Shown: positions 1-51,940, counted from the stretch's first letter. The stretch is 64,000 nt of DNA from Fimicolochytrium jonesii (GCF_025526975.1 NW_026515668.1:1302001-1366000); one strand, 5' to 3'. Notes: generated from the sequence alone by a model not told the origin. Translations and numbers: made by a program.

Positions 1-194
1 CGGATCAGGGCCAAGGCGTGCGCCTGATGTCCCTGCCGGATGCACTGTTGTACTTGTCCCGAAGTGCGTCGCGGAGGCCCTCTCTGTTTTTCCAGATGGG
101 CACGATGGGCGCCAGGGGTTTGCCTGCGCGGGGTGGGCGGAGCCAGAGACGACTTGGCTACGAGCGCTAGCGCGGCGGGTGACGTTAACGCGGG

Positions 195-1274
195 TCACGC
201 ACCTTCTTTTTCATCCCCGTCTTTTTTAGCCCTGTGTTTTCTCTTCCCCCCATTTTTCTCCCCCTCAACAAACAGGGAGCCCACGTAGGTGTCCACAGCA
301 CGCCGGGCTGCGCGGGCGGTGTCGACGGGCTGCCCCATCAGGTCCCCCGCCACGATCCGCGCTGTGTCGTCGCAGTCCGTGACCAGGTAGCTGCGGCCTG
401 CGCTCCGAGAGGATGCAACGATGAGTCGGAGGGGCTCGCCGGCCAGTCTGCAGATCTCGACCAAGCTCTGGGCGGCTGTGATGAGCGCCCCCTCGGCGAC
501 GACGACGTCCGCGATGGTCGCCGATATGCTCCCCACGTCGTCGCGGAGCGCCCTCCTGTTGTCGGGGTCCAGCTGGTCGACCAACGCCCGCGCGAGGCTA
601 CGTTGTGCGCTGTGGCCAAGCAAGTTGGCGGTCCCGGGCCTAGCCTCCGCACCGGCAGCCTCCCTCATCCGCCCCATGTCGACGTCGGCCGTTTTCCGAG
701 CTTCCGCCATGTCCGCCATGCTCAATGACCTGAACCGATCAGCGGGGTCGCCCGCCCGTAGAAGCTGCAGCATTCGGTTGACCATTCTTGTCTTCTCTTG
801 CTGAAGGATGCGTTTGGCGGACTTTCCACTGCGCTTCTTGGGCGCGGCGCTCGCCCCCTCCTCCCCAGCCTCCTCCTCAGCGCGCCCCTCCTCCTCAGCG
901 CACCCCTCCTCCTCCGCGTCGCCCTCCTCCCCCCCTTCCTGCTCATGCTCGCTCCCCTCGTCGCCGACGGCAAGTAGCACGCTGGTGGCCATGTCCGCCA
1001 GCGCCTCCTCGCTCTCGACGTCAGAGTCGGAGCCATCAGCGGCCTTGTCGGCGGCCTCCGCCACCTTCGACCGGCGGGCCGGCATCTAGAAAAAGCAGTG
1101 GATATGCATGTGTCGTTAGCGCCCGCGCGCGGCAGTGCCATATATATGCCCGCTCCACACACCGCCCGCGGTAGCGCCTCCCCGCCCGCGCTATCGCATC
1201 CTTATGGCGAGTCTGTGGTGAGGCTATATATATATGCCAGCTGCACACCCCCATACCTCGCCGGCCGCTTCCAT
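195..1274 (-). CDS. Hypothetical protein (acidic N-terminal region, basic NLS-like tracts KKRSGKSAKR and GGKRKHRAKK)
   Basis: 296-aa ORF 195..1085. A probable short first exon MEAAGE (1274-1257) is joined in phase by an intron GTATGG...GCTAAC...TTTTCTAG (1256-1086). No recognisable domain. Confidence 0.55.
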
Positions 1275-1331
1275 GTTTGACCGGCTAGGGCCGGGCGCCT
1301 TTGCCGCCGCTTGGCTGCGAGTCTCCATCTT

Positions 1332-1396
1332 TGTGTGGGTGTGTGGGTGCGCGTGTGTGTGTGAGTGTGTGTGGGTGTGTGTGTGGGGGTGGGTGT
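1332..1396. repeat. Imperfect (GT)n microsatellite between divergent genes
   Basis: tgtgtgggtgtgtgggtgcgcgtgtgtgtgtgagtgtgtgtgggtgtgtgtgtggggg seen directly. Confidence 0.85.
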
Positions 1397-1701
1397 TTCT
1401 CCGCCTTCCAGAGCCGGCCGCACTTAGCTGCTTAGCCAATCCGCTGGAGGTGGCGCAGTCGCGGCGCAGCCGTGGCTTGCCGGTCACATGTCCACACTGC
1501 TGCTGTGATGATCGCCGCATCTCCAGGACCACACTGCCACACGAAACGTCAAGCGCTTGCAGCGGACGACAGCCCCCCGGCCAGCGCCTCCTTCCAGCTC
1601 AAGCCCGGCAACTCACACAGAGCACGCTCCGACAATGCTCAGCGCTGACGAGGTGAGTGGCCGCTGTGTAGCCGTGGGCGTCTCTGCCGGGTGTTGACCG
1701 C

Positions 1702-2129
1702 CTGATCCCGCAGCCCATGCTGAGCACGACCGCCGCTTGCGGGAGGTCGACCGGCATGGGGTGCGCTGTCTGGGCGTGTTTGCTATCCGCTGATCCCGCC
1801 GCCCATGCTGAGCACGACCGCCGCTTGCGGGAGGTCGACCGGCATGGGGTGCGCTGTCTGGGCGTGTTTGCTATCCGCTGATCCCGCAGCCCATGCTGAG
1901 CACGACCGCCGCTTGCGGGAGGTCGACCGGCATGGGGTGCGCTGTCTGGGCATGTTTGCTATCCGCTGATCCCGCAGCCCATGCTGAGCACGACCGCCGC
2001 TTGCGGGAGGTCGACCGGCATGGGGTGCGCTGTCTGGGCGTGCTTGCTATCCGCTGATCCCGCAGCCCATGCTGAGCACGACCGCCGCTTGCGGGAGGTC
2101 GACCGGCATGGGGTGCGCTGTCTGGGCAT
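1702..2129 (+). repeat. 88-bp tandem repeat, ~4.9 near-identical copies
   Basis: Unit ctgatcccgcagcccatgctgagcacgacc...gctatccg starts at 1702, 1790, 1878, 1966 and 2054. Confidence 0.95.
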
Positions 2130-2214
2130 TCTGCTGTGCCACGTCGATGGTCGCGATTGCGCGGGCTGAGCTGCTAACACCTTCCCCCTCCCCTTCCCCT
2201 CTACCGCGCCGCAG

Positions 2215-3513
2215 GCCACGCCACCCGTCCCACCCACCGCGGTCGAGGCTCTTCTGATGGGCATGGGCGAGAGCCGCGCCACAGCTATCTTCGGCGACAC
2301 GGTGGCCTTTTTGTATCCGCTGCTGGTAGACGCCGGCCTTGCCGCCCGGGACGCCAGCCTAGAAGACAAGGCAAAGGCGATTGGCCTTTTTTCAAAGAAG
2401 ATCAAGCAAGACAGCCCCACCCTTTGGGGTTGGTGGATCAATAGGCCAACGCGGTCCCGTCACCAGAAGAAGCGCGCCAAGCACCACATTGGGCTCCAGT
2501 CCGGCATCATTGCCGCAATCAGCGATGGCAGTCTTACCACGGCCGACTTCTCGGTGGACCCCCAGCCCTCCGCTAGCCGCCCGGCTGTTCACATCGTGGT
2601 GCCAACGCCCGCCTCGTGCGATGGCTGGGAGGGCGAGATGGCCTATGCGGGGTTTGGGAAGCGGCCGGCGAAGGCAAGGGGCCTGGATGGGCTTGAGCAA
2701 ATTGAACCCCGGGGGGGGGCCGACATCTACATCCGCGACGAGCACGGCGCCCTTGTGGCCACAATCTCGTACAATAGCGCGGGTCGTCGCGAGCATGACC
2801 TGCGGCTGGGGCTCATCGTCGAGTCCTGTGGATCCCGGCCGGCTCTGGTTCGATGGAAGGCTTCAAGGGGCACAATGCACGCCGCGGGGCTTCGTCGTGG
2901 CGTCAAGCACTCGGGATATGCCAGGGGGACGTCGCACTATTCAATGAAAGGAGGGGCTGACATGTCGGCAAAGAAGTTTCTCGTCGCCACGGAAAAGGCC
3001 TTCACCAAGCGACTGCTGCAGGAGCTCACCAAACGCAACCCCACCGCGGCGGCCTACCTGATGATGTCCATGCCAGAGGTGTACGGCCCACACTCCGATG
3101 AGTTCGCCCCGCTGTTCACCACGACCAACTACCAAGTGGTCGTTCACTCCGACCCGTCGGACGACGGCGTAGCCGGCAAGCTGAACCCGCACACAGGCCG
3201 CGCCGTATGGAAGCTGACCCCCAAGGAGGAGCTTCCGGAGGAGCTTCAGGCCCGCAAGCTATGCACGCAATGGGTGGCAGGCTATGCCGCCGCTCCGCCA
3301 ACCGTCGTCGGGGAGTGGATATTTGCGCTGCCAGAGCAAGGCTTCTACTTGGTGCTGCAGCCCAACTGCATGTGGACGTGGATGTCTGACAGGCTCCACG
3401 GAACGCCGGTGCTTGACGCGTCCGGCGGCAGTCGCCACACGGCTGTTGTGACGCTGCCCCTGGCGACGGCCGCGGCCATCCGGAAATACGGCCTCCCTGA
3501 TCAAGACGAATAG
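2215..3513 (+). CDS. TET/JBP-like 2-oxoglutarate-Fe(II) dioxygenase (main exon; 5' exon probably near 1635-1652)
   Basis: 418-aa ORF with GTMHAAGLR (resembles the GxMxxxGWR motif of fungal Tet-like proteins), HxD (HSD, 3145-3153), distal His in RLHGT (3397) and Arg in SRHTAVV (3433). A splice acceptor GCTAAC...CCGCAG ending at 2214 is in frame with the ORF; upstream donor GAG|GTGAGT at 1653. Confidence 0.7.
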   Translation, partial: ATPPVPPTAVEALLMGMGESRATAIFGDTVAFLYPLLVDAGLAARDASLEDKAKAIGLFSKKIKQDSPTLWGWWINRPTRSRHQKKRAKHHIGLQSGIIAAISDGSLTTADFSVDPQPSASRPAVHIVVPTPASCDGWEGEMAYAGFGKRPAKARGLDGLEQIEPRGGADIYIRDEHGALVATISYNSAGRREHDLRLGLIVESCGSRPALVRWKASRGTMHAAGLRRGVKHSGYARGTSHYSMKGGADMSAKKFLVATEKAFTKRLLQELTKRNPTAAAYLMMSMPEVYGPHSDEFAPLFTTTNYQVVVHSDPSDDGVAGKLNPHTGRAVWKLTPKEELPEELQARKLCTQWVAGYAAAPPTVVGEWIFALPEQGFYLVLQPNCMWTWMSDRLHGTPVLDASGGSRHTAVVTLPLATAAAIRKYGLPDQDE

Positions 3514-3820
3514 CCGCGCCACCCCCAGCAGCAGCGGCCCCCCCTCGTGCGTAGATGTGGACCTTGACTGCGTAGATTTTGTAGACCTTGCCTGCCTTGC
3601 CTGCGTAGATTTTGCAGACCTTGCCTGTGTAGAAAGGTCCCATCAATAGGCGAGTTTGGCGCGCAAGAGTCCGATGTGGCGAGGGGCTTGCTCCAGTAGC
3701 GCGGGCGAACGTGATGGACCGGACCTCGCTGCGAAGCTTCGGCGGCTGGAGGCCCGAGCTGCCCGTCCAGACCTTGCCCAGCGTGTCTCCGTCCTGCGGG
3801 CGCCACAATGACACGCACAC

Positions 3821-4360
3821 ACGTTAGCGCTGGACTCGTGACGTTAGCGCGGGCGTGGGCGCTAACGCCTGTGAGGCCGCGTTAGCGCGGGCGTGGGCGC
3901 TAACGCCTGTGAGGCCACGTTAGCGCGGGCGTGGGTGCTAACGCCTGTGGGGCCACGTTAGCACGGGCGTGGGTGCTAACGCCTGTGGGGCCACGTTAGC
4001 GCTGGCGTGGGTGCTAACGCCTGTGGGGCCACGTTAGCGCGGGCGTGGGTGCTAACGCCTGTGGGGTCACGTTAGCGTGGGCGTGGGTGCTAACGCCTGT
4101 GGGGCCACGTTAGCGCGGGCGTGGGTGCTAACGCCTGTGAGGCCACGTTAGCGCGGGCGTGGGTGCTAACGCCTGTGGGGCCACGTTAGCGCAGGCGTGG
4201 GTGCTAACGCCTGTGGGGCCACGTTAGCGCGGGCGTGGGTGCTAACGCCTGTGGGGCCACGTTAGCGCGGGCGTGGGTGCTAACGCCTGTGAGGCCACGT
4301 TAGCCCGGGCGTGGGTGCTAACGTCTGTGAGGCCACGTTAGCGCGGGCGTGGGTGCTAGC
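3821..4360 (+). repeat. 38-bp tandem array, 13 full copies plus partials, each with a 9-bp-stem hairpin
   Basis: Unit acgttagcgcgggcgtgggtgctaacgcctgtggggcc starts at 3841, 3879, 3917 ... 4297, with a partial copy at 4335. Internal inverted repeat cgttagcgc/gYgctaacg. Confidence 0.95.
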
Positions 4361-4654
4361 GCCGGCGTGGGTGCCACTCACCGTGCCCCGGGGCTCCGCG
4401 TCTGCAGGCCTCTACATGGACGTGAGCAGACAAGTTCCAGACCGCCAAGACCGAGCTCCTTCTTACAATTGCGCACAATTGCGCACACTTCCACCCTCGC
4501 ACATTCAAGGCAAACCCCCAGCCAATCTCTGAAAGCCTTCAGCACTTCGCAGGTAAGCGGGAGTCCAGGATCCTCCTCGAGAGCAGGCCCCTTGCTCGGC
4601 CCCCTTGATCTGACCACTTGCCTGCACAGCACAGCACAGCGCGGCACAGCCATC

Positions 4655-7519
4655 ATGTCATCACACCAGGCGCTCCAGGGGCACCTGTGGGGTGGCTTCT
4701 TTACGGGAGCAACCACACCACGGCGGAAGAGGAGGAAGGTTACTCCGGCTACCCCGCGGCTGCCCATAAATCTGCCAGCCGCTGTGCAGACACCTTTGCA
4801 ACCACCCCCGCGATTCGAGTTCCCACCTTCTGTCCATCGCCACTTGCCCCAAGCAATTGCAGACATGGTTAGCGAGAGCTCCGGCGATGAAGACGGGCAG
4901 CAGCAGCAGCAACAGCAGCGAGGGCTTTCGCCCGTGGACAGGGGTCTGCAGCGCCCACCGAACCTCCCCGCGCCCATCCCTTTCCGTTTTCCCAGCACAC
5001 CGGGTGGATCCCTGGTGTATGAACCCCCGCCACCACCACCAGCTCAACGACCCCGCCCGCAAACACATGCCAGCACCAAGGTTTCGCTTCACCGAATCAT
5101 CCAAAATCACAATCAAGTCCAAAGGGAGCGCCTGACAACGTTCATCGCCGATGTTCACGTCCTTGCGCGCCACACCACCTTCTTTATCAAGTACTACCTT
5201 GGTGAGTTTTTGAGGTACACTATACTGTATATTTCCCATAAAACAATGTCCTGACTGCTACATCTGCCCACCCCACCACAGCTGACCATCCTCTACACGA
5301 TTTCCCGGACATCACCGACAAGCACATCAGTGTGATGTTTGAGCTGCTCAACAATCCAGGCTACAATGGCAATCCGCTCATCGCGCAAGAGTTGCGTCCA
5401 TGGGTTCAAGACTACTGTAATGTTCACGGATTTGCCCCCATCCGCATGCGAAATTGCCAACAGACCGCAGCGTACACGGCTACGAGCATCCTCACAAACC
5501 TCAAAGTTAACGTACAAGAGCATTTCATGCAAATGTTTCTGCGCTACGTCAATGAGAGGCTTGGTTTGAAGCAAGTCGAACGGCATCTCCGGAGAGCGCA
5601 GCGGCGACACTATTATCGTCGTGTCTGTCAATTTACAAAGTACGCGACGTTTGAAGAGTACCCAACCGAAGAGGAGCTTGCACGCCTCACACGACTTGAG
5701 CAGACCGTCCTCGACGAGTTATGGGCTCTTTTTCCTCCCCAGGATGAGCCGCTTGCGTACAGCCTTGCGGTGGACGCAATGCCATATTTAGGTGAGTTAG
5801 TATATATCCGTCCCCCCCCTCCCCGCGGGTTCCGCTTTTGTCTAATCATGGTCCGCACCTGCCTCGCCTCATCACAGGTGCCTATTGTGAGCTCTCACGC
5901 CTCTATGAGCGCCGTGGAATGCGGCTGTTTTCCGCTATCCCGCTGCGCAAATCTTGAATCCAGTCATCTGTTCGGATCGACACAAAGATCCTAGGCACTC
6001 ATATCCTGGGCTTGAGCCAAAGTCGCATGGGGAAACTTACCGATGAACGCAAGCGGGAGCTGTGGGGGCAGTTTCTCAATGTGAATGTAAGTTAAGTCTG
6101 TATCCCTCTGCGCTTATTTCAATCACCTCGCTGAATGACGATTGGAGGACAAGGTCTTCAAGGATCGAAAGAAGCTTGGTCTCAAATTTGATGGGTCAAT
6201 CAGCACAAACGGGTATTCCGCTACCACCCACTTCAAGAAGCCAGGGCTCAAGTACGGCCATCGCGCTCGGAAGCGCAGCAAAGCCCAAATGCAGGAAGAA
6301 GTCAAGCAGCTGTATTTTGAGCACCACATCGCCGAACTAAGGGAGGCTCCAAACATCGTCTGCATTGATCCGGGCAAGCGTGACCTCTTGTTCTGTCGAG
6401 ACATCAAGAAGGAGCGGCCATTTCGGTGCGTTTCAGTTGATTACTACTGCCCTGCTGTCCCCGCTACCCCCCCCCCCCCCCCCCGTCTCCGCCCGCCAGC
6501 CCCCCGTCTCCACCCGCCAGCCCCCCGTCTCCACCAGCCAGCCCCCCGTCTCCACCCGCCAGCCCCCCGTCTCCGCCCGCCAGCCCCCCGTCTCCGCCAT
6601 CCCCGTTGCGGCGACATTCCGTTGCAGCGTCCTCACAATGCACCACCCCATATCAGATACACATCCAATCAACGGGCGGTCGAGACAAAGTCTCGGTACT
6701 TTCAAAGAGACATGAGAGAGCGAAAGATCAATGCCGGCATCGCTGAGATGGAATCACATATTCCATCGCACAAGAGCATGAACATCGAGGCGTTCTCAGC
6801 GTTCATCGTGGATTACGAACATGCGGGTATGATGTTCCACTTCAACTTTGATTTTCAACTTTGGTAATACATGGGCTGACATCTATATCCCAGATCCCGC
6901 CCTGGATGAGTTTTACCAGGATAAGGTTCACATAGCTCGCAGATTCAAGGCGTTCTCACTGCGGCAAAAGTCTGAGAGCAAGCTCATCAAGGACATGCGC
7001 CGCCTGTATGGAAAGCATTTTTCGGTCATCTTGGGTGATTGGAGCGACGCTGGAAAAACCATGCGCTTTCAGGAGTCATCAAAGACCAAAGGGTGAGTGA
7101 CCATCATTGTTTTTTATGTATTATAATACGCTCACTCATGGGGGGAAATCAGATTCCGCACACTCTTTGCAAGAAACAGCATTCCATGCTACTTGCTAGA
7201 TGAGTATCGAACGTCCTCCCTGTGCCCAGACTGCCACGGGCGTGTGAAGAAAAACATCCGACGCCGGCTGTCACCTCGGCCGTGGCAAGCTAGAAAGGGA
7301 AGAATGGAATACGTCCATGGATTGGTGGGTTGCCCCAACCCCGAATGTATCAACCAAGACTGGACGCCGTTTGAGATTCCTGGAAGACAACCACTACGAC
7401 TACGGATGAAAGTGCACAATCGGGACGTCCTAAGCACCAAGAATTTCCTCTCGATTGTGCGTTCGGTGGTGTTTGGCAATGGCCGCAGACCAGACGCATT
7501 CTCCCGTAACCGTAGGTAG
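4655..7519 (+). CDS. Fanzor1: Fanzor1 (eukaryotic TnpB-like RNA-guided RuvC nuclease), 7 exons, one in-frame TGA (possible pseudogene)
   Basis: Exons 4655-5201, 5282-5791, 5878-6086, 6148-6425, 6657-6826, 6894-7092 and 7153-7519 sum to 2280 nt in one frame. Motifs: FDGSISTNG, RuvC-I CIDPGKRDL (D at 6367), FRYTSNQR, ILGDWS, RuvC-II LDEYRTS (E at 7202), zinc finger CPDC...CPNPEC, RuvC-III HNRDVLSTKNF (D at 7424), N-terminal RRKRRKV NLS-like tract. TGA at 5955-5957. Confidence 0.88.
6467..6598 (+). repeat. Poly-C plus 21-bp tandem repeat (~5.7 copies) inside Fanzor intron 4
   Basis: ccccccgtctccRcccgccag repeated from 6479 to 6598. Confidence 0.9.
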
Positions 7520-7540
7520 TCTAGATTTCACCCCATCCCA

Positions 7541-7640
7541 TTTTCCGTGGGGGTTATCTGCCATCCACATCATTGTACCTCTGCCTGAGGCGTCGCCGAT
7601 GATGGCAACTTGTATTCCCAAACAACATTCCAGATCCAGC
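7541..7640 (+). ncRNA. Candidate Fanzor omegaRNA scaffold plus guide
   Basis: Immediately 3' of the Fanzor stop. Nested stems tggggg(7548-53)/ttccca(7615-20), tgccatc(7559-65)/gatggca(7601-07) and inner cctc/gagg. The position matches known Fanzor omegaRNA loci. Confidence 0.5.
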
Positions 7641-9121
7641 AAGCAGGACACTCCCCAGTTCGGGTATATTGGCAACCGCCGCCGTCAATGGGAAGGAAGT
7701 GGGTCAGAACGACGACGGCAGGACGGGTATCAGTCTCCTCACGACTTTCAGTGTCATCTTGTGAGCCATCTTGCGCTTTGTACCGTAACAGGGGAGAATA
7801 TGAGAATATTCCCACCTGGTGTACTCGACACTAGCTCGACAGTCTTTGATGGAGTCACACAGCGGTGGACCATCTCTTGACAGTGCGTCAAAATCCGTCT
7901 TGCTGGTTCTTACAGGTTGGCGAGATAACTCAACAGCGATGGAGAACCGACGCTCGAGCCTTAGAGAACTGCGTCCGCCGCCGCGCCTCACGATACAAAA
8001 ACCGAATGTCACTATAGAAATCCTGCACGGGTGTCCGTTGTGCTGGTATTCACAACGAATGACGAAGGCCCAAAGTGAATGAATCACAAATGACAGGACC
8101 GGAAGGAAAGGTCAAAATGAAATTCGTCGAAACAGGCCTTGGATTCTCTCTCGCTCAATAAGAGAAACAAAGTCTGGAATGCATCTGGCTGTATCTAGTG
8201 TCAGCAGAGATCATTCCTGTCGGGTGCGAACCGAAATCTCTTCAGAGCCTTTCTTTGATGAGCGCAGATCCTTCGACAACTTGGTAGACAACTTTGTATG
8301 TAGAATGGTTGCACCTTAGTGGTTCCGAAGTTTACTCCTGTATATTACATGGGCATTTTGTCCAAGGTGCCCCTTGCGGATAGCGGTGAGGCGGCGCTTC
8401 AACCTCTGAGTGAGCATTTGTGTGGAATTTTGTGCGCATCGGTGTACTGCCGAAAGCAGCCCGAAACATGCCCTGCACCCAGGCATCCCTCCCCACGAAA
8501 CATATACAGAGTAGGTCCCTGTGCCAGAGCGGAGTTTGAACCTTGATTGAAGGAAGCTCACATGATGAGGTCTCTCACGTTGACCGCAAGCTGGCTGACC
8601 ACGCAAAACAATTCGAAGCGCTGACCAAAACAATCCAGTGCGATCACCGCATGTGCCAAACCGACGTTCGTCCTGTCGGAAATGCGCCCACGCCTGTCGA
8701 GATACGGCGCCGTAAGCAAAAGGCCAAGCAAACAGGGCTTGCCTGTTGCTTCTGTGTTCCTGCCGCGTTCGATGATCGAATCCATCACGAGGCCCCACCG
8801 TTCACCTTCCTTCAACCACTGCGTAGTCAACTTTGCGAGTGGAGGTCCTGTTATCTCTCTGTGCATATCCTCTCTACGACATCCGGCACTTTGAAATCGA
8901 GTGTATCCTATCGTGAGGCCACCGCGCAATGGCGCATTAGGTATGTGTGTCAGTCGGGCATGTACTCGGAACTTTCGTCGGTGTCTTGGACTGTGGGAAA
9001 TTTACTTGGGAAAACCGGGCTCATAGATTTGTTGAAACCCTCAGTGGTATTCTCCTCGGACCCAACACCTCATATCATAGAAGCCACGAAACGGCGCAGT
9101 TTTGTAATATCTTCCGCAGCT

Positions 9122-10600
9122 ATGGTTCTAACACTCGCGAGTACTCGCAGCTCGCCCAGTCCTGTGGACTCGAGAGCGGCAAAGTATGAAAAGGCAGAGA
9201 CATCAGTAAAATACAGGACTTGGACCGCAACTTCGTCGCCGGCGAGAAGTTCACTTATGCGGCCGACTGCCTCCTCGGCGGCTAAAGTCACCGTTAAGGT
9301 GCCCACGACTCCGAAATCTGTCAGTTTCGCCACATCGCCTCGGACGCCTAGCCCCGCAGGCGCAGCCCAGATGTCCAGGGAAAGGAAGACGCTAGTCAAG
9401 AAGCCGTCCTTCGTACTGCCGGCGAAAGTCCACCTCCCCCAGCCACCCATTCCGCTGATGAGCCAATTCGCCGTGCCAAAGAAACCATTGGGCCCTCGAT
9501 TATCGATCGCCGCCGCCGCTGCCGCACCACTTGCGCAATATTCCCCGCCTAAGACCGCGGGATCGTCCTATGATATTACCACCAGCCCCAAAATCACCAC
9601 TGGCGGCCCTAAACATTCCGCCGCGAGACTACCTCGATCACCACCAAAGCAACCGGTCGTCAAAGTATCTCGCTATCCAGTCCCATCCCCACCCTCTTCG
9701 CCGCCTAGCGCAGTCAAAAGGGTATCAGCTTCAGCCCCCTCATCCCCTAACACAGGCATGCGAAGGCCTTCCATATCAGAGATGCGAGTCATCCCTGAAC
9801 CACCCGCCAAATGCGTCCGCTCCCTTTCATCCACCTCATCCCACGAACTCAGCAAAACATCCCGCTCCTCGTCGATCAGCACGGCAGTAACGTCGCCAGC
9901 AGCCGCCCGGAATGACATGTCGCCAACACCCAGGCCGATCACCGACTACGCACGTTACCTGCACCAGACCATCGAACGCGGCGAATCCATCTTGGAAAAC
10001 AACGAGATTGAATTGCTAGCGCTCGAGCGGAACCAGTACCGCGACTCGTTCCGCCGCGCCGATTGCGAGAGGAACGTGTTGCTCGAGTACATCATGGCCG
10101 AGCAGAACCCGAATCAGAAGGAGAGGCGGAACAACAGCAAGAACGCCGTCTCCGAAAAGGCGTTGGCCGATCTGCGTAAAGAACTCGCGGAGTCAAACAG
10201 CACCATCTCGATGCTCTCGCAAAAAGTCACCGAGCTGGGCGTGCAGGCGCGAAAGGACGCTACCACCATCGCCTCGCTTCGCAATGACTTGACCACCATC
10301 CGTTACGCTGAATGGGACTCTGGCGTTGAGCTGGAACAACATGCCACCGTCCAGTTGAAGCGGCGCGGATCGAGGTCTCCGTCAATGGCGAGGAAAGCGT
10401 CTGCGTCGGACGATGGGCCGGTACAGGTCACCGTCAGTCGGGGAAACAGCCCTTTGCTGTCGCGTAAGCTGACTCCCGAACCTGCGACGGAGAAGCCTCA
10501 GCCGAAACCTCAGGCTGAAATCATCGTGAAGGAAGAGAAGAATGACGATTGGGTCAGCTGCTGGGATTCCTCGGCTGCGTTTGCCCATCCTTTCATGTAG
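9122..10600 (+). CDS. Hypothetical Ser/Pro-rich protein with C-terminal coiled coil
   Basis: Long open frame (8543..10600) with likely ATG at 9122. Heptad-like region YLHQTIERGESILENNEIELLALERNQYRDSF... Confidence 0.65.
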   Translation: MVLTLASTRSSPSPVDSRAAKYEKAETSVKYRTWTATSSPARSSLMRPTASSAAKVTVKVPTTPKSVSFATSPRTPSPAGAAQMSRERKTLVKKPSFVLPAKVHLPQPPIPLMSQFAVPKKPLGPRLSIAAAAAAPLAQYSPPKTAGSSYDITTSPKITTGGPKHSAARLPRSPPKQPVVKVSRYPVPSPPSSPPSAVKRVSASAPSSPNTGMRRPSISEMRVIPEPPAKCVRSLSSTSSHELSKTSRSSSISTAVTSPAAARNDMSPTPRPITDYARYLHQTIERGESILENNEIELLALERNQYRDSFRRADCERNVLLEYIMAEQNPNQKERRNNSKNAVSEKALADLRKELAESNSTISMLSQKVTELGVQARKDATTIASLRNDLTTIRYAEWDSGVELEQHATVQLKRRGSRSPSMARKASASDDGPVQVTVSRGNSPLLSRKLTPEPATEKPQPKPQAEIIVKEEKNDDWVSCWDSSAAFAHPFM

Positions 10601-12490: not shown

Positions 12491-13891
12491 ATGAAAGTTA
12501 GTATCACACCCGCAACACCACAAGGAGCAGGAGCGAACGGATGGATGGACGACGGTCGAGGGGCGGCGTGCGTGCGCTGGCAATGGATGGATGCATGAGG
12601 GAGTGGCTGATGGATGGAAGTCGAATTGGTGCATGGAATGTGAATGTGGACAATGGCACGGAAAACCTACGACCGGCGCAACAACGAGGACTACCGAATG
12701 ACGGCAGAGCAAGGGACGTGACGACGTCGGCTATGGAGTGGGAGGCTGTAGCTTACCATGCAGATTGCATTTATGCTCAATTTGTGCAAACCGGCTGGGA
12801 CGTCGAATTGCATTGCCATAACGACGAGTGGGAGGACAGAGCCAGCTAGGTGGACGGAAGAAGGAGGGAGGGCTATGCCGAAACCGTGAACGCCGAGGGG
12901 ATACTATTGACCGTCGAGCGGAGACTGATCGTTTCAAATTCTCTTTGTTACCAATTTACAGTTGAACATTGCTTACCCCGCCCTGGGCACCCAGAAGACC
13001 ATCGAGGTCGACGATGAGCGCAAGTAGTGAGTATTCCTGTCGAATTACGCTCAAAGAGGATATTGGGAATCTGGAGCTGGGTGGTGGGAAAGTGTCGAGA
13101 AGGCATGTCGATCTGACGATTCGCCTTGTCCTTCGCTCAGCCGTATCTTCTACGAGAAGCGCATGTCGCAGGAGGTTAAGGGAGATGCCCTCGGTGACGA
13201 ATTCAAGGGTTACATCTTCAAGATTACCGGTGGAAACGACAAGCAGGGTTTCCCCATGAAGCAGGGTGTTCTTGAGGCCCGCCGTGTCCGTCTCCTTTTG
13301 TCTGCCGGCCACTCTTGCTACCGCCCCCGCCGTACCGGTGAGCGCAAGAGGAAGTCCGTCCGTGGATGCATTGTTGGCTCCGACATCGCCGCCCTTGCTT
13401 TGGTTGTCGTCAAGCAAGGTGACGCCGACATCCCTGGCTTGACCGACACTCAGGTGCCCAAGCGCCTTGGACCCAAGAGGGCCAGCAACATCCGCAAGAT
13501 GTTCAACCTCACCAAGGATGACGATGTCCGCAAGTACGTCATTCGCCGTGAGATCCCCGGCAAGGGCGACAAGAAGGGCTACACCAAGGCCCCCAAGATC
13601 CAAAGGCTGGTCACCCCCCGTACCATCCAGCGCAAGCGTCACCTGAAGGCCTTGAAGGTTCGCCAATCCGCGAAGGTTGCCGAGGTGAGTCAATGAAGGC
13701 CATAGAATGCCGTTGGATCTCTTGTTCAACTTGCGATAAACGACAGATGAGACTAAACAACGGTTTTTTAGGATGCCGCCGAATACGCGAAGATTCTCGC
13801 TCAACGTATCAAGGAGCGCAACACCAAGCGTCAAGAGCTCCACCAGAAGCGTCGTCTCTCCTCCACCCGCAAATCCACCACCCAGGCATAG
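12491..13891 (+). CDS. RPS6: 40S ribosomal protein S6 (eS6), 4 exons
   Basis: Exons 12491-12496 (MK), 12962-13026 (LNIAYP...DDERK), 13141-13684 ([10 protein letters not shown]...[14 protein letters not shown]...KRLGPKRAS) and 13772-13891 (…KRRLSS…). Confidence 0.97.
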
Positions 13892-26339: not shown

Positions 26340-27597
26340 TCATTCCCCCTCAATACCCTCGAATCCCGATTTGCTGCCCTCATTCCCAGGAGAGATGTTG
26401 CGGCTGGTTCCCTCGTCGTCGTCCGAGTCCCCAGTTGTAACATCCTGATTCTCCGTGTATTGTTGACGTTTGTTCCGGAGGCATTCATCCATTATGGTCT
26501 GGCGCGCAGTGTCGTCCAGAGCGACGTATTTCTGGATGCCGCGAGTCATCGAAATCCAGAATTCTTTGGGTGCACGGCTCTTCTCGTTCATCCCAGCGGT
26601 TAGAGCCCTCTACACAAACCATCAGAGTGCAACGATTGACGAGTGAGGACATGACAGATATGTACGCAGACAACCAACTCATTGTTGCGAAGCCTTACCA
26701 TCATTGCAGCCCTCTGCACATGGTCTTCTGTGAGGACCTTAGCCCGAAAAAGGTTGGTCGCAAAGTCCTCCAGCTTGCCCTGGTTGACGGTGTTTGTCTT
26801 TGCGTCCCAGATAACCTTCTTTAGATCCGCTTTCACACGAGAGATGTTCACACTAGCTTCTTTTTTGACCAACGCACGGCGGGCGGGGATCTTGCCAGCA
26901 TCTTTAGAGACGCCCCATTGACGATCAAAGATTTTGTTCGTCAAAGCCTCTGCCTCATTAACAAAGCCGGAAATACAAGGATTGCGCACCATGCGCTTTG
27001 CCTCTTTGCGGATGTTAATCTACGTTGATAAGAAGGTGAAGTAAGAGGTTTGTCCGGTCATGACTGTCTTCGGCAATGAATGCACCCTGCATTCTTGAGG
27101 TATTTCCCAAACATCATTGACGAGGCGCTGGGCTTGCTTTGTGTGCTTTGTGTTGCTTTCGCCTAGGATGTACAGCTGCAATAACTGCTCGCCCAAACCT
27201 TTACTGGCAAAGCGTAGAGCCTTGTCCGAGAGGTCTGGGTCAAGGTTGGCACCACATACGACATTTGTCGCTTGTTGTACCGACAATGGAAATCCGAGCT
27301 TACTAAGTTAGCTGCGGGGGTGCGGCTGGCTGACTGCGGCGTGGAAGAGGAAGTGGCAGGGTGGTTGGCGAACAGGTTGGCGCCTGGAGACGAGCGCATG
27401 GGATGTAGGAGACGTGATCCAGATGTAGGAGGGTGGTTGGTTGTTCCAAGCCGGAGACGTTTATTGGAACCACTTGAGCTAGGCGACGCTACGGCCTGGC
27501 CAGACCGCTGTGACCCTCTCGAAGGAGTTTGATTGCCATCCCCGTTATCACCGGGGGCATTCGTAGTGTCTCCGAAATTGAACCCGAGTCCCTCCAT
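26340..27597 (-). CDS. Transposon accessory ORF2 (multi-exon hypothetical protein)
   Basis: Co-oriented ORF pieces 27597-27163, 27286-27020, 26992-26600 and 26591-26340 flanked by GT/AG-like signals, directly downstream of the transposase. Confidence 0.5.
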
Positions 27598-38258: not shown

Positions 38259-39527
38259 AGGTGAGTACACAGCTGGCCCAGAATGTCAGTTTCGTTTGCG
38301 GTATGTATTCCTTCTGGGCGGGTGGTTTATGTCCCAGGAATGCACTCAGGAGTTGAGACGACTGGCGGCTTTTGTTATGCAAACGTCGTCGGCCGGAGAA
38401 AGACTGGCGAAACACAAAAAGCTCACAGCGTAAAATGGGGTCTCGCTTTGGAGGAGGCAGCGGTAATGCCTCTCTCTATCTATGTATATCTATGCGTGGG
38501 ACTGTGCCCTTGCTCTATTAGCTCGAAGAGTGCCTTCTGTCGGGGACCCTAGCATGCAGCCTTTTTTCCCAGCCCCGTTTTGCCTGTTGGGTGTTGGGTC
38601 GCCTGGGAATGAGCACCAATGGAATGGGCGGCCAGCCATATGTGGATAGTCAAGATGGTGTCACCAACCAGGAACTACCGCGCACGCGTCCACCTCAAAC
38701 AGCCGCGGCTCCTTACCTGTCCACTGGGCGTCGCAGCGCAGCCCCATTGGCCAAATCATATGGGGACATTGGGGAGTTGGAACCAACCGCTCTTTCGGCA
38801 TTTATTTCGAATTTCACCAAGAACGCGAAGTTGTGGACAGAGAATCTATTTCGTGTAACCCATGCGCCAAACTCTATTGCTGCACGCCGATGCCATGTGG
38901 GTGCCCACTGCGGGAATTGCGGGAATTGGCGAACACAAGCCTCGATGAAACAGGCTTTGGCGTACAGTCAGGGAATAAAAGCTATAGACCTCCTCTAATT
39001 CAAATCAATGTCGGTCCCTCACGTGAATTTGGCGTTGCGGCAGTCGCTGATTTATTTCAGGGGGGGTCCAGCTTTTAGTTCCGCTGACTGTACAGTACTG
39101 CCTTTAGTCTGAACAACACTCAGCGTACACCTTTCGAGAAGGACACGCGGCATGAAGTCTCTCATCAGCTTCTGGGAGGGTCATACGAATTGCGAATTGC
39201 GCGCCGCATCAGCAGTTGCGATACTTCTCTGTCCACAGCAGACGGCTCTCTCTGGGGGAACCTGACGAGAAAGGCTCATATGCAGCGACGACATATGTAG
39301 CAAGAGGGACAAACTTTGCTTTCTGAGCGAAGAATTCTTATTGTTTGGTATGCACATTGATTTCGTAAAGGTCATCCACAGAGTCTATATATCTTTCTAC
39401 AGATGGGAGGCTACTCTAAATCTACATCTTCCACGCCCCGTGTGAGGTTGGTGGAATGTGGGGGAATATTATTACAGTGCGAATTTTGGTCGCAATGGAA
39501 AGATACGGGTACGTAGGCATCTTGCGA

Positions 39528-49742: not shown

Positions 49743-51579
49743 TGCCTTGTACGGAACGGCGATGAAAGCGAGCGACGACAATGAAGACCGTGCAAGGTCG
49801 AATGGTGGCAAGTGAGGTAGCAAGTGGTAGTAGCCAGGCGACAACGGTCTTGGCGGAGTTCAGCTCCGGAGTAGGCGAGTGGCACAAGAAAGCGAAGCGA
49901 AGGGCGACTGAAGGAAAATCAGGAAGTGCGGACCCAAGATGCTGTATTTATAGGCCGCGAGAGTGAATGCGATCCGGCCTGAAGGGACCTCGGCGAAGCT
50001 GTGGTGTATGGGGCCCGGCCTGACCTAATTTCGCGAACAGTAAAGAAGGTAAGGCCCATGCCGTGCTTGGTCGATGTTTACGATATTAAGATGGAAGCGT
50101 AATCAAAAACAGGCGCAAGACTCTCACTTGAGAGAAGGTAAAGGAAGGGACACGCGACGGGGGCGGCACGCATCAACAGCAGCAGCAGTGAACCCGTTCA
50201 ATTAAAGCAAAGAAACGAATAAACCGTCGCAGCATATTACGCACGAACCCGCAGTCTTTGTCCTGTTGCTGGTGCTTTTTCCTACCCAGTGGCCCATATC
50301 GTTCTGGGCAATCAAGCGCAATCAACAAATGGCGCGCAACAAATGGCGGGAAAGACCCTTGACGCGTTGGGTAAGCAAGGACGCGTCCAAAAACCCCTTC
50401 GCAAACAGCTAATGACCGTAGAAAGAACGAAGGTTGTGGATCGACCGCACAGGTGTTGCAGCTTTTATCAATGGGTCTCTCCGGGTAAGCAAAAGAGCAG
50501 TCCTCTCACCAAAGTGCCGTGCGTGAGCTTCGACGTATGAGATTCCGAAGAAACCAGCGTACGTTCGACAATTCGATCTGCGAGGGTGTCTTTATCGTAG
50601 ACCTTCAGATGCGAACGAGGCATGAATGCGAACTACGGGGTACTTGTTGACTTTCTCAAGCAATACCGATTGACAGATGAACAACAGCTCAAGCAAAGAG
50701 CTGCATCCGAAAAGATTCGGCTATAGAAACACCTAAAGCGTTACGAGAAGGTGCTACGGTTGCCGTGAGGCCAACCTATCTACCCTGCAAGTGTCTGAGT
50801 CAATCGACAGCAAGAAGAATGAGGATCGGGAACGCTATACCGCGCATGGCTGCTCGCAAATGCAATCCTTCGGGGCAGACGTAGGGACGACAATGTAGGG
50901 AGGCATCAGTCAACCCTATTCAACGGCGAGAACCTGAATGAAATGGAATAGGGGGCGACTAGAAAGAGGTGAACGTTGACCGCTGCTTCCCGGGGACGGT
51001 CGGACACTCTTTGAAAGCACGAGCAACGCGGTCGGCAAGGTTCAAGCGCTGTGACGGGAGTCGAGGATTGGAGGACATCGCTCAATTTCAGTCCGGGTGG
51101 GATCCATGCCCCTCGGTTATCGTTCAGGTTGTTGGAATGTAAATAAGTCTGATGGGTTTGATGTTGCAAGTCCCTCTGCTCGTTGGTCAGCGAATGACGC
51201 CGCCACCCTAAAAAGGTTCGTCTTGAGATAGCTGAGTGATTGTGAAACTAACGAGACCATCGTAGAATAAGGGACAATGCATCACAGGGCTGGGACCGCT
51301 AAGCAGCGTTGCGACAGGTATGACTTCTGGAAACCATTTCAACACGCCGGACACAATGTAAGATATACCGCAACGGGGTGAAGGTGAAGCCGCTCGGGTA
51401 CCGACAAATACTCAGGCGGCTGCCTCGGTGTGTAGGTCCTAACCGTTTGATATGAATAGGATCAATGACGCTAAAAGGTCCTTCAAGCGAGCGTCCAGAT
51501 CCAGAGCTAGATCTTTAGACGTCCGAGATGTGAAAACGCGAAAGTGGCAGTGTACAGTATATGTAGCAGACTGTATGTA

Positions 51580-51706
51580 CAGCCAGGGAACATAAAGCTG
51601 TTCCCCCCGAAGGAATAAATCAGCGACTGCCGCAACGCCAAATTCACGTGAGTGACCGACATTGATTTCAATTAGAGGGGGGGCACAGCTTTATGTTCCC
51701 TGGCTG
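51580..51706. mobile_element. Tc1/mariner-type MITE with TA target-site duplication
   Basis: ta|cagccagggaacataaagctgt ... acagctttatgttccctggctg|ta: perfect 22-bp TIR extended by cccccc/gggggg. Confidence 0.75.
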
Positions 51707-51940
51707 TATATGTAGCGCCCACAGAGCGTGGCGAGGCCTCGAGTCAACGTCACCCCATCCCGAATGCCATTCCTCTCGAAGTTACCTTAGTCTCATAGAC
51801 TGCGTATACACTCACACTATATCCAACCTAATATTGAAGGTCGGCACATTAAGCTGCCCATCGCCCGTCGAGGTGCACCTGATCACAATTCCGGCCCTCT
51901 TTCGTACCACTCTCGCTCACTTCGCCAGCACAGCACCATC

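Follow-up and report, generated by a model that had tools for sequence, protein, structure and literature searches.

In Dikarya, TET genes are known as cargo of 11 lineages of fungal DNA transposons, namely Kyakuja, Dileera, Zisupton, hAT7, IS3EU, PHISTA, EnSpm, ESTA, Plavaka and Helitron1/2 (Kojima 2025, PMC12730594). The Fanzor nuclease SpuFz1 belongs to Spu-1, a 2.1-kb element with just one open reading frame (ORF) between inverted repeats of 30-33 bp (PMC3627910, PMC10432273). In the established logic of TnpB and Fanzor, insertion of such an element parts the target-adjacent motif (TAM) from the guide match, and the vacated site is the target (PMC13565253). The present analysis concerns a stretch of 64,000 nucleotides from Fimicolochytrium jonesii (GCF_025526975.1 NW_026515668.1:1302001-1366000, here called the window), which is intron-rich fungal DNA of about 53% GC with a stretch of 65% GC at its left end. 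In this fungus, which we take to belong to the Spizellomycetales, the left end of the window encodes a TET/JBP-like 2-oxoglutarate (2OG)-Fe(II) dioxygenase and, downstream of it, a Fanzor1 nuclease. The combination of TET and Fanzor is real, recurs in the genome and is apparently undescribed. It joins two known transposon cargoes, by a mechanism that we infer.

The initial annotation of the window had read a TET/JBP-like 2OG-Fe(II) dioxygenase with an HxD...H...R signature here, and for the ORF at 2215-3513 both the signature and the likeness to TET/JBP held. The frame is open and contains H297-x-D299, H381 and R393 (numbered from Met 2257). A predicted exon of six codons joins it in phase over an intron containing an 88-bp tandem array. 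The annotated protein model of the locus begins with the same residues as this exon, and the 88-bp repeat is also present in TET paralog models. Searches of Pfam, PDB sequences and PDB profiles with the ORF gave no real match, only unrelated weak ones being returned from PDB, and neither Tet_JBP nor 2OG-FeII_Oxy_6 was matched at the curated Pfam cut-offs. A search of 1.8 billion representatives yielded 14 matches. After P0070 and P0071 had been excluded as repeat-driven, the remaining homologues aligned over GxMxxxGxR, NY...HxD and W...F...PE.G...W.W....HGT....R. Three distant homologues matched Tet_JBP (E 2.4e-5) or 2OG-FeII_Oxy_6, below the curated cut-offs.

The structure of the TET ORF was predicted with AlphaFold from an alignment of 12 sequences (mean pLDDT 61, pTM 0.67); a model from the single sequence (pLDDT 34) was not used. 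When the model was compared with known structures by Foldseek, ranks 1 to 15 were all TET-family chains (CMD1, CcTet or human TET2) and stood above FTO/AlkB. Their E values spanned 7e-7 to 1e-5 (CMD1 6.7e-7, CcTet 7.5e-7) at TMq values of 0.44-0.55. The first match in the ESM Atlas was at 0.96, with PF20515 on 15% of the members and a recognition value under the threshold of the tool. A TET/JBP fold of the ORF is supported by the predicted model.

Eleven TET paralog models of 70-90% identity were found, all of them from F. jonesii; among the cluster members, P0023 and P0052 show no difference from the two genes of the window itself. The nearest relative outside the species is from Powellomyces hirtus (37% identity over 420 columns), and the remoter ones are from P. 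hirtus and Geranomyces. R213, H297, D299, H381 and R393 are all retained in the P. hirtus homologues. Since three P. hirtus copies at 37% identity keep these five residues, the TET/JBP-fold protein is under long-term constraint and multi-copy in two genera. The three P. hirtus genes (P0065, P0076 and P0077) are nearly identical, lie on two contigs and have repeat-derived N-termini in their models; they probably represent an undescribed TET-carrying element. No TET relatives were detected in metagenome contigs (245 pattern matches, 0 confirmed). The predicted substrate is 5-methylcytosine (5mC), with N6-methyladenine (6mA) and thymine as alternatives. 6mA was retained because it amounts to 1.84% in F. 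jonesii (PMC11258239) and because CcTet acts on it as well (PMC12730594).

The Fanzor1 gene was found on the same strand as the TET gene, 1.14 kb downstream, much as the initial annotation had described it (co-oriented, about 1.1 kb away), and its seven exons show homology to SpuFz1. The last exon matches SpuFz1 (8gkh) with an E value of 3e-28, and the whole protein is 44% identical to this Spizellomyces punctatus Fanzor over 618 columns. D496, E655 and D729 align with the catalytic residues D383, E541 and D606 of SpuFz1; the RuvC D-E-D is rearranged, with the E six residues ahead of a C4 zinc ribbon. The N-terminus carries a Pro-rich extension of about 135 residues. Of the SpuFz1 residues that contact the TAM, Q129, Q130 and Y345 are retained, and R96 and N133 are changed (residue roles from PMC10432273). 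An in-frame TGA at codon 379 is the single internal stop. Most Fanzor paralogs covering this site have Arg there, which fits a CpG transition. Because the TGA precedes all RuvC motifs, the window copy is, as read from its sequence, a pseudogene.

A full-length Fanzor paralog model exists (P0049, 761 aa), and at least 48 other Fanzor models are present in F. jonesii. All 13 clusters matched by the last Fanzor exon, and all nine matched by the ORF at 2257, are named F. jonesii. The nearest Fanzor outside the species is from Gaertneriomyces (57% identity), and among 42 matches, covering lengths of 418-1332 aa only, none was from Powellomyces or Geranomyces. Metagenome contigs contained six Fanzor loci, none with a TET by profile, which is weak evidence, five of the six being shorter than 3.6 kb. 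Two metagenome Fanzor1 loci, L001:181-1997 and L002:8-2085, share 42-46% identity with the protein of F. jonesii and show frame breaks on short contigs. The F. jonesii model P0099 joins a Fanzor fragment with a tyrosine recombinase (match to Phage_integrase, E 6e-4). This fusion was considered as a clue to a Crypton and dropped; it is probably a nested insertion of DIRS/Crypton type at another locus, seen in 1 of about 57 models.

The order of GenBank/RefSeq accession numbers of protein models was used as a proxy for gene order. Accession order was taken to track position because the window's own TET/Fanzor pair is consecutive and models of one contig carry neighbouring numbers. For seven of the 11 other TET models, at least one of the 48 Fanzor models stands at most three accession numbers away (offsets +1, -2, +3, -1, +1, -2 and -2), compared with an expectation of 0.31 (P 4e-9). 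This count leaves out the window's own pair as well as the cluster members P0032, P0060 and P0064, which are unrelated short proteins. Eight further Fanzor clusters without accession were not counted. As the contig of TET P0024 holds three of these and the contig of P0007 one, the count of seven may be low. If hypothetical and named proteins were numbered in separate series, the null rate would rise, to about 0.07 by estimate, and the adjacency result would stand. The initial annotation had set recurrence of TET together with Fanzor as a check, and as far as protein records allow, the pair does recur. The linkage is well supported by the accession order of the models, and the pair likely sits together at eight or more places in the F. 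jonesii genome.

A chance meeting of two unrelated repeat families, either at a hotspot in regions rich in transposable elements (TE) or through segmental duplication, is very improbable. The pairs P0008/P0059 and P0025/P0061 are nearly identical, which looks like a recent duplication and would suit this explanation. However, when the near-identical pair was merged, 6 of 10 TET models were still adjacent to a Fanzor (P 1e-7), and six further independent pairs lie on different contigs. The 48 Fanzor models merge to 45 loci, so they are not clustered with each other, and a TE-rich island therefore does not explain the adjacency.

We consider it probable that a DNA transposon carrying TET took up a Fanzor of Spu-1 type at the right end and combined anti-silencing with restorative homing. 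What the window holds would then be the right portion of a mobile unit present in many copies with shared ends, likely a large DNA transposon, and the Fanzor1 would have been acquired later, at the 3' end of an element already carrying TET. TET would oxidise the 5mC by which the host silences the element, and Fanzor would cut the vacated site, which would then be refilled by copy-back repair. The two functions would be additive and not biochemically coupled. The family would have spread in one burst, many Fanzor copies having later lost TET or being shorter derivatives.

Part of this proposal was compared with the decay of the copies, for which CpG-transition rates were inferred from proteins and ambiguous routes were split. 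In the TET paralogs (n = 11, 169 distinct amino-acid differences) CpG-type changes reached 0.35 per opportunity versus 0.06 for other C/G transitions, a 5.8-fold excess. In the Fanzor paralogs (n = 11) the corresponding values were 0.12 and 0.05. The window copy has 19 private changes in TET and 25 in Fanzor, of which 3 and 6, respectively, are of CpG type. Transposons are the only place where 5mC is found in Spizellomyces (PMC12695648). The CpG-biased decay is as in methylated repeats and would give TET a plausible job. Of the two purposes offered in the initial annotation, the countering of silencing is thus plausible in view of the 5.8-fold excess.

Fanzor is likely the terminal gene at the right end of the element, because two Fanzor models run at their 3' ends into different host genes (with CHZ and CUE domains). 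A stem-loop follows the Fanzor stop at 7522-7560, with z values of -1.9 to -2.1 for 7505-7590 and 7520-7560; the longer stretch folds at z -0.6. By analogy to Spu-1, this region is a candidate omegaRNA scaffold whose guide would be the host flank; Rfam gave no match for it. The candidate end of the element reads TG at 7612, followed by TA (TG/TA at 7612-7614). An inverted partner of the 3' region (7500-7800) was not found in 1-4700, where the best match was 13/16 and scattered, and a pair of Spu-1-like 30-33-bp inverted repeats flanking Fanzor was absent from the window, which speaks for the capture. A candidate guide match at 27103 (2 mismatches) was at chance level. A weak hairpin at 7590-7613, checked as a Helitron 3' hairpin, was no better than shuffles (121 of 300 as good), and no RepHel gene came into view.

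The transposase and the left end of the element lie outside the window. A KDZ/Kyakuja-like superfamily is offered as a lead only, with slightly less than even confidence. The ends of KDZ/Kyakuja elements have CA..TG termini, no terminal inverted repeats and a 7-bp target-site duplication (PMC12730594). The candidate right end terminates in TG as a Kyakuja element would, but two letters are too short to count. ORF1, which diverges from the TET gene, is probably an accessory gene of the element, and the interval between the two starts is probably their common promoter. ORF1 had no Pfam or PDB match. Its Atlas matches (0.92-0.93) were clusters from Basidiomycota that share no Pfam family, one of them auto-named 'HMG box domain-containing'. 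An HMG-like gene reportedly stands beside TET in Kyakuja/KDZ elements, which we use as a lead only. Scans of viral contigs found no relatives of TET, Fanzor or ORF1. An origin of the GC-rich block from an endogenous virus is not supported by these scans, and the genes of the block have introns.

Several observations weigh against the capture of a Fanzor by a TET-carrying transposon, and the first of these is composition. The initial annotation had placed both genes in a single compositionally distinct block, which was not confirmed: GC changes at 5061 from 0.65 on the left to 0.52 on the right, the value of host DNA. Homology to the Gaertneriomyces Fanzor begins at 5066, at the GC step. Outside the coding parts, GC ranges over 0.60-0.71 as far as 4630 and over 0.37-0.61 within the introns of Fanzor, and GC at third codon positions is 0.80 in ORF1, 0.77 in TET and 0.61 in Fanzor. 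These values suggest that a Fanzor core resembling host DNA became attached to a GC-rich element, although the Pro-rich extension itself lifts GC. Furthermore, only 7 of the 45 other Fanzor loci have an adjacent TET model and 38 have none, the TET search behind this count covering 229-732 aa.

The Fanzor tree (44 rows, last 166 columns, 8 short models dropped) speaks for the capture: it was star-like, and TET-adjacent Fanzors required 5-6 label changes in the bootstrap trees and formed one group in 0% of 200. To be counted against the favoured capture, a single clade of TET-adjacent Fanzors was not rejected in the approximately unbiased (AU) test (p 0.126), the distances among these Fanzors lay slightly below those of random sets (p 0.045), and TET and Fanzor distances over 8 pairs were uncorrelated (rho -0.14, p 0.47, from noisy gene models). 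The slight closeness and the unrejected clade would also be expected from a single nested insertion. In that case an independent, non-autonomous Fanzor element of 45 or more copies would have inserted once near the end of a TET transposon, and the composite would have been amplified about a dozen times with the Fanzor as a passenger keeping its own ends. The GC step, the many Fanzor loci without a TET model and the Powellomyces TET copies without a Fanzor match would all suit such an insertion, which we regard as unlikely and nevertheless worth serious consideration.

The remaining points against the favoured capture concern TET itself and the other loci. All five key residues are kept in only 2 of the 11 other TET models. 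This and the CpG decay show that TET did not shield the family for good. Both the activity of TET and the RNA of Fanzor are predicted only. Models P0001 and P0006 have a common C-terminal extension, which is not encoded in positions 1-9000 of the window. They appear to form a subfamily with a different spacer, so the distance between TET and Fanzor would not be uniform. The ends, target-site duplications, spacing and orientation of the other loci are unseen in the order of protein models.

The spacer of the window copy had been described as a CpG-rich hairpin array. The array of 38-bp units is indeed there, but its observed/expected CpG ratio is 1.14 versus 1.0 in host DNA, and the 9-bp stem of the unit gains nothing in folding over shuffled sequences (z -0.8; 64 of 300 shuffles did as well). 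The idea that the array is a functional hairpin or an RNA gene was considered and rejected, as its folding is no better than that of shuffles and Rfam gave only chance matches to miRNAs. Five tandem arrays, two of them intronic, occur in this stretch; the present one is an ordinary GC-rich minisatellite without sign of a role. Its last unit also stands ahead of a second Fanzor copy (model P0084, which matches from 4355 onwards). The array is possibly intronic itself, with a predicted acceptor at 4407 and candidate donors at 3547 and 3823. A motif resembling the start of the 38-bp unit was noticed at 179-194, 1110-1127 and 3838-3855; two of these sites are in ORF1 introns, in one of which the motif overlaps the predicted branch site, and the array may be derived from a branch-site region.

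The donor at 3547, a GTGCGT of common type 34 nt 3' of the TET stop, could together with acceptor 4407 splice TET and Fanzor together and remove the whole spacer, as far as motifs go. Such splicing would accord with a coupled system, in which the Fanzor pathway depends on demethylation or on a base mark made by TET (for transcription of Fanzor or omegaRNA, for opening the donor to homologous repair or for altered cutting of modified targets). Both genes might then be expressed from a single spliced transcript. The recurrent adjacency of the models and their same strand in the window copy also fit, and SpuFz1 reads TAM bases directly (PMC10432273), so that base modification could matter. However, a coupled system of this kind is decidedly improbable: the splice sites are motif guesses, and each partner was found without the other in the searches made (Powellomyces TET and Spizellomyces Fanzor), most Fanzor loci having no TET model beside them. 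The second purpose named in the initial annotation, self-marking of the element against its own nuclease, was unsupported in view of these separate occurrences. It would also be unneeded, because in the known Fanzor logic insertion parts the TAM from the guide match, and the target is the empty site and not the element. A bolder version makes eraser and RNA-guided nuclease one spliced unit: TET would strip or rewrite host methylation on the element and in its flanks and in this way allow Fanzor to be expressed, vacated sites to be cut and homologous copy-back to proceed in silenced chromatin. This version is fairly improbable. If true, it would be the first natural TET-plus-OMEGA homing machine.

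Table 1. Features at the left end of the window (positions counted from its first nucleotide; TRF, Tandem Repeats Finder)
Feature	Position	Strand	Basis
ORF1, predicted three-exon gene, 339 aa, acidic N-terminus	5..1274 (exons 1274-1257, 1085-203, 123-5)	-	splice motifs
Interval between divergent starts of ORF1 and TET gene, with (TG)n run at 1332-1396	1275..1634	.	sequence, TRF
Predicted first coding exon of TET-like gene, 6 codons	1635..1652	+	GTGAGT donor in phase with acceptor at 2214
88-bp x 4.8 minisatellite within predicted TET intron	1702..2127	+	TRF
Main exon (432 codons) of TET/JBP-like 2OG-Fe(II) dioxygenase gene, H-x-D...H...R intact	2215..3513	+	open frame after splice acceptor, homologues, predicted fold
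33-bp x 2 tandem repeat 3' of TET stop	3562..3627	+	TRF
38-bp x 13.8 GC-rich minisatellite	3841..4363	+	TRF
Predicted 5'-UTR intron of Fanzor gene	4553..4629	+	GTAAGC donor, CTGAC...CAG acceptor; sequence motifs only
Fanzor1 gene, seven exons, 759 codons	4655..7519 (4655-5201, 5282-5791, 5878-6086, 6148-6425, 6657-6826, 6894-7092, 7153-7519)	+	GT-AG introns, homology
In-frame TGA, Fanzor codon 379	5955..5957	+	sequence
21-bp x 5.6 minisatellite, Fanzor intron 4	6479..6595	+	TRF
Candidate omegaRNA scaffold and candidate right end of element	7510..7614	+	folding; position by analogy to Spu-1

To the right of the element, host genes follow. A Ser/Pro-rich coiled-coil ORF at 8651-10600 (+) had no Pfam match, and the ORF at 13163-13696 (+) is presumably a host gene for a ribosomal protein S6-like protein. 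At 38963-39094 and 51576-51708 an element of about 130 bp occurs in two copies of 85% identity; its ends are inverted and have TA at their borders, which resembles a miniature inverted-repeat transposable element of Tc1/mariner type.

The pairing of TET and Fanzor was not found in full-text literature searches, beyond whose reach lay subscription journals, Repbase and most supplements. In their accessible text, an OMEGA review (PMC13565253), Jiang 2023 (PMC10530073) and Yoon 2023 (PMC10711439) do not mention a dioxygenase; the main text of PMC12730594 has neither a chytrid nor a Fanzor, and its Table S1 neither Fanzor nor TnpB. The words Fanzor and TET co-occur in 10.1101/2025.02.11.637652, PMC10288648 and PMC10806789. 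The F. jonesii locus extends TET-carrying repeats to Chytridiomycota (Powellomycetaceae) and makes known an intron-rich relative of SpuFz1 with altered TAM contacts. It touches on why eukaryotic transposons retain Fanzor and whether the TETs of fungal transposons undo silencing. Because the chytrid can be cultured and the family numbers about 50 copies, some with an annotated TET and some lacking one, in which CpG decay is visible, methylation, expression and homing could be compared within one genome.

Among described systems, the viral Mariners PGv-1, Mariner-2_PGv as well as Mariner-1_OLpv resemble the element in carrying a nuclease and, in some, also a DNA-modifying enzyme (a methyltransferase); unlike here, the modifying enzyme and the Fanzor occur in different elements, and none is described there with a dioxygenase (PMC3627910). 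The TET-like genes of P. hirtus and Geranomyces belong to the same TET clade, have a repeat-derived N-terminus in their models and occur, in P. hirtus, as three near-identical copies, but no Fanzor accompanied them among the 42 matches mentioned above. The TET-carrying fungal transposons of PMC12730594 likewise have a multi-copy gene of TET/JBP fold with an HxD...H triad, CMD1, CcTet, TET2 and NgTET as nearest structures, and other accessory genes. The TET motifs of the window are similar by eye to the PE type of that study, but with HxD instead of HxE; the host here is a chytrid, a Fanzor adjoins, and transposase and ends are out of view. Spu-1 with SpuFz1 (Bao and Jurka 2013, PMC3627910; Saito et al. 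2023, PMC10432273) shares with the window Fanzor 44% identity, the RuvC triad, the zinc ribbon, dozens of copies and, as predicted by folding, a structured region past the stop. The window Fanzor differs from Spu-1 in its six coding introns, the long N-terminal extension, the TET neighbour, the nonsense codon and the changed contacts R96 and N133.

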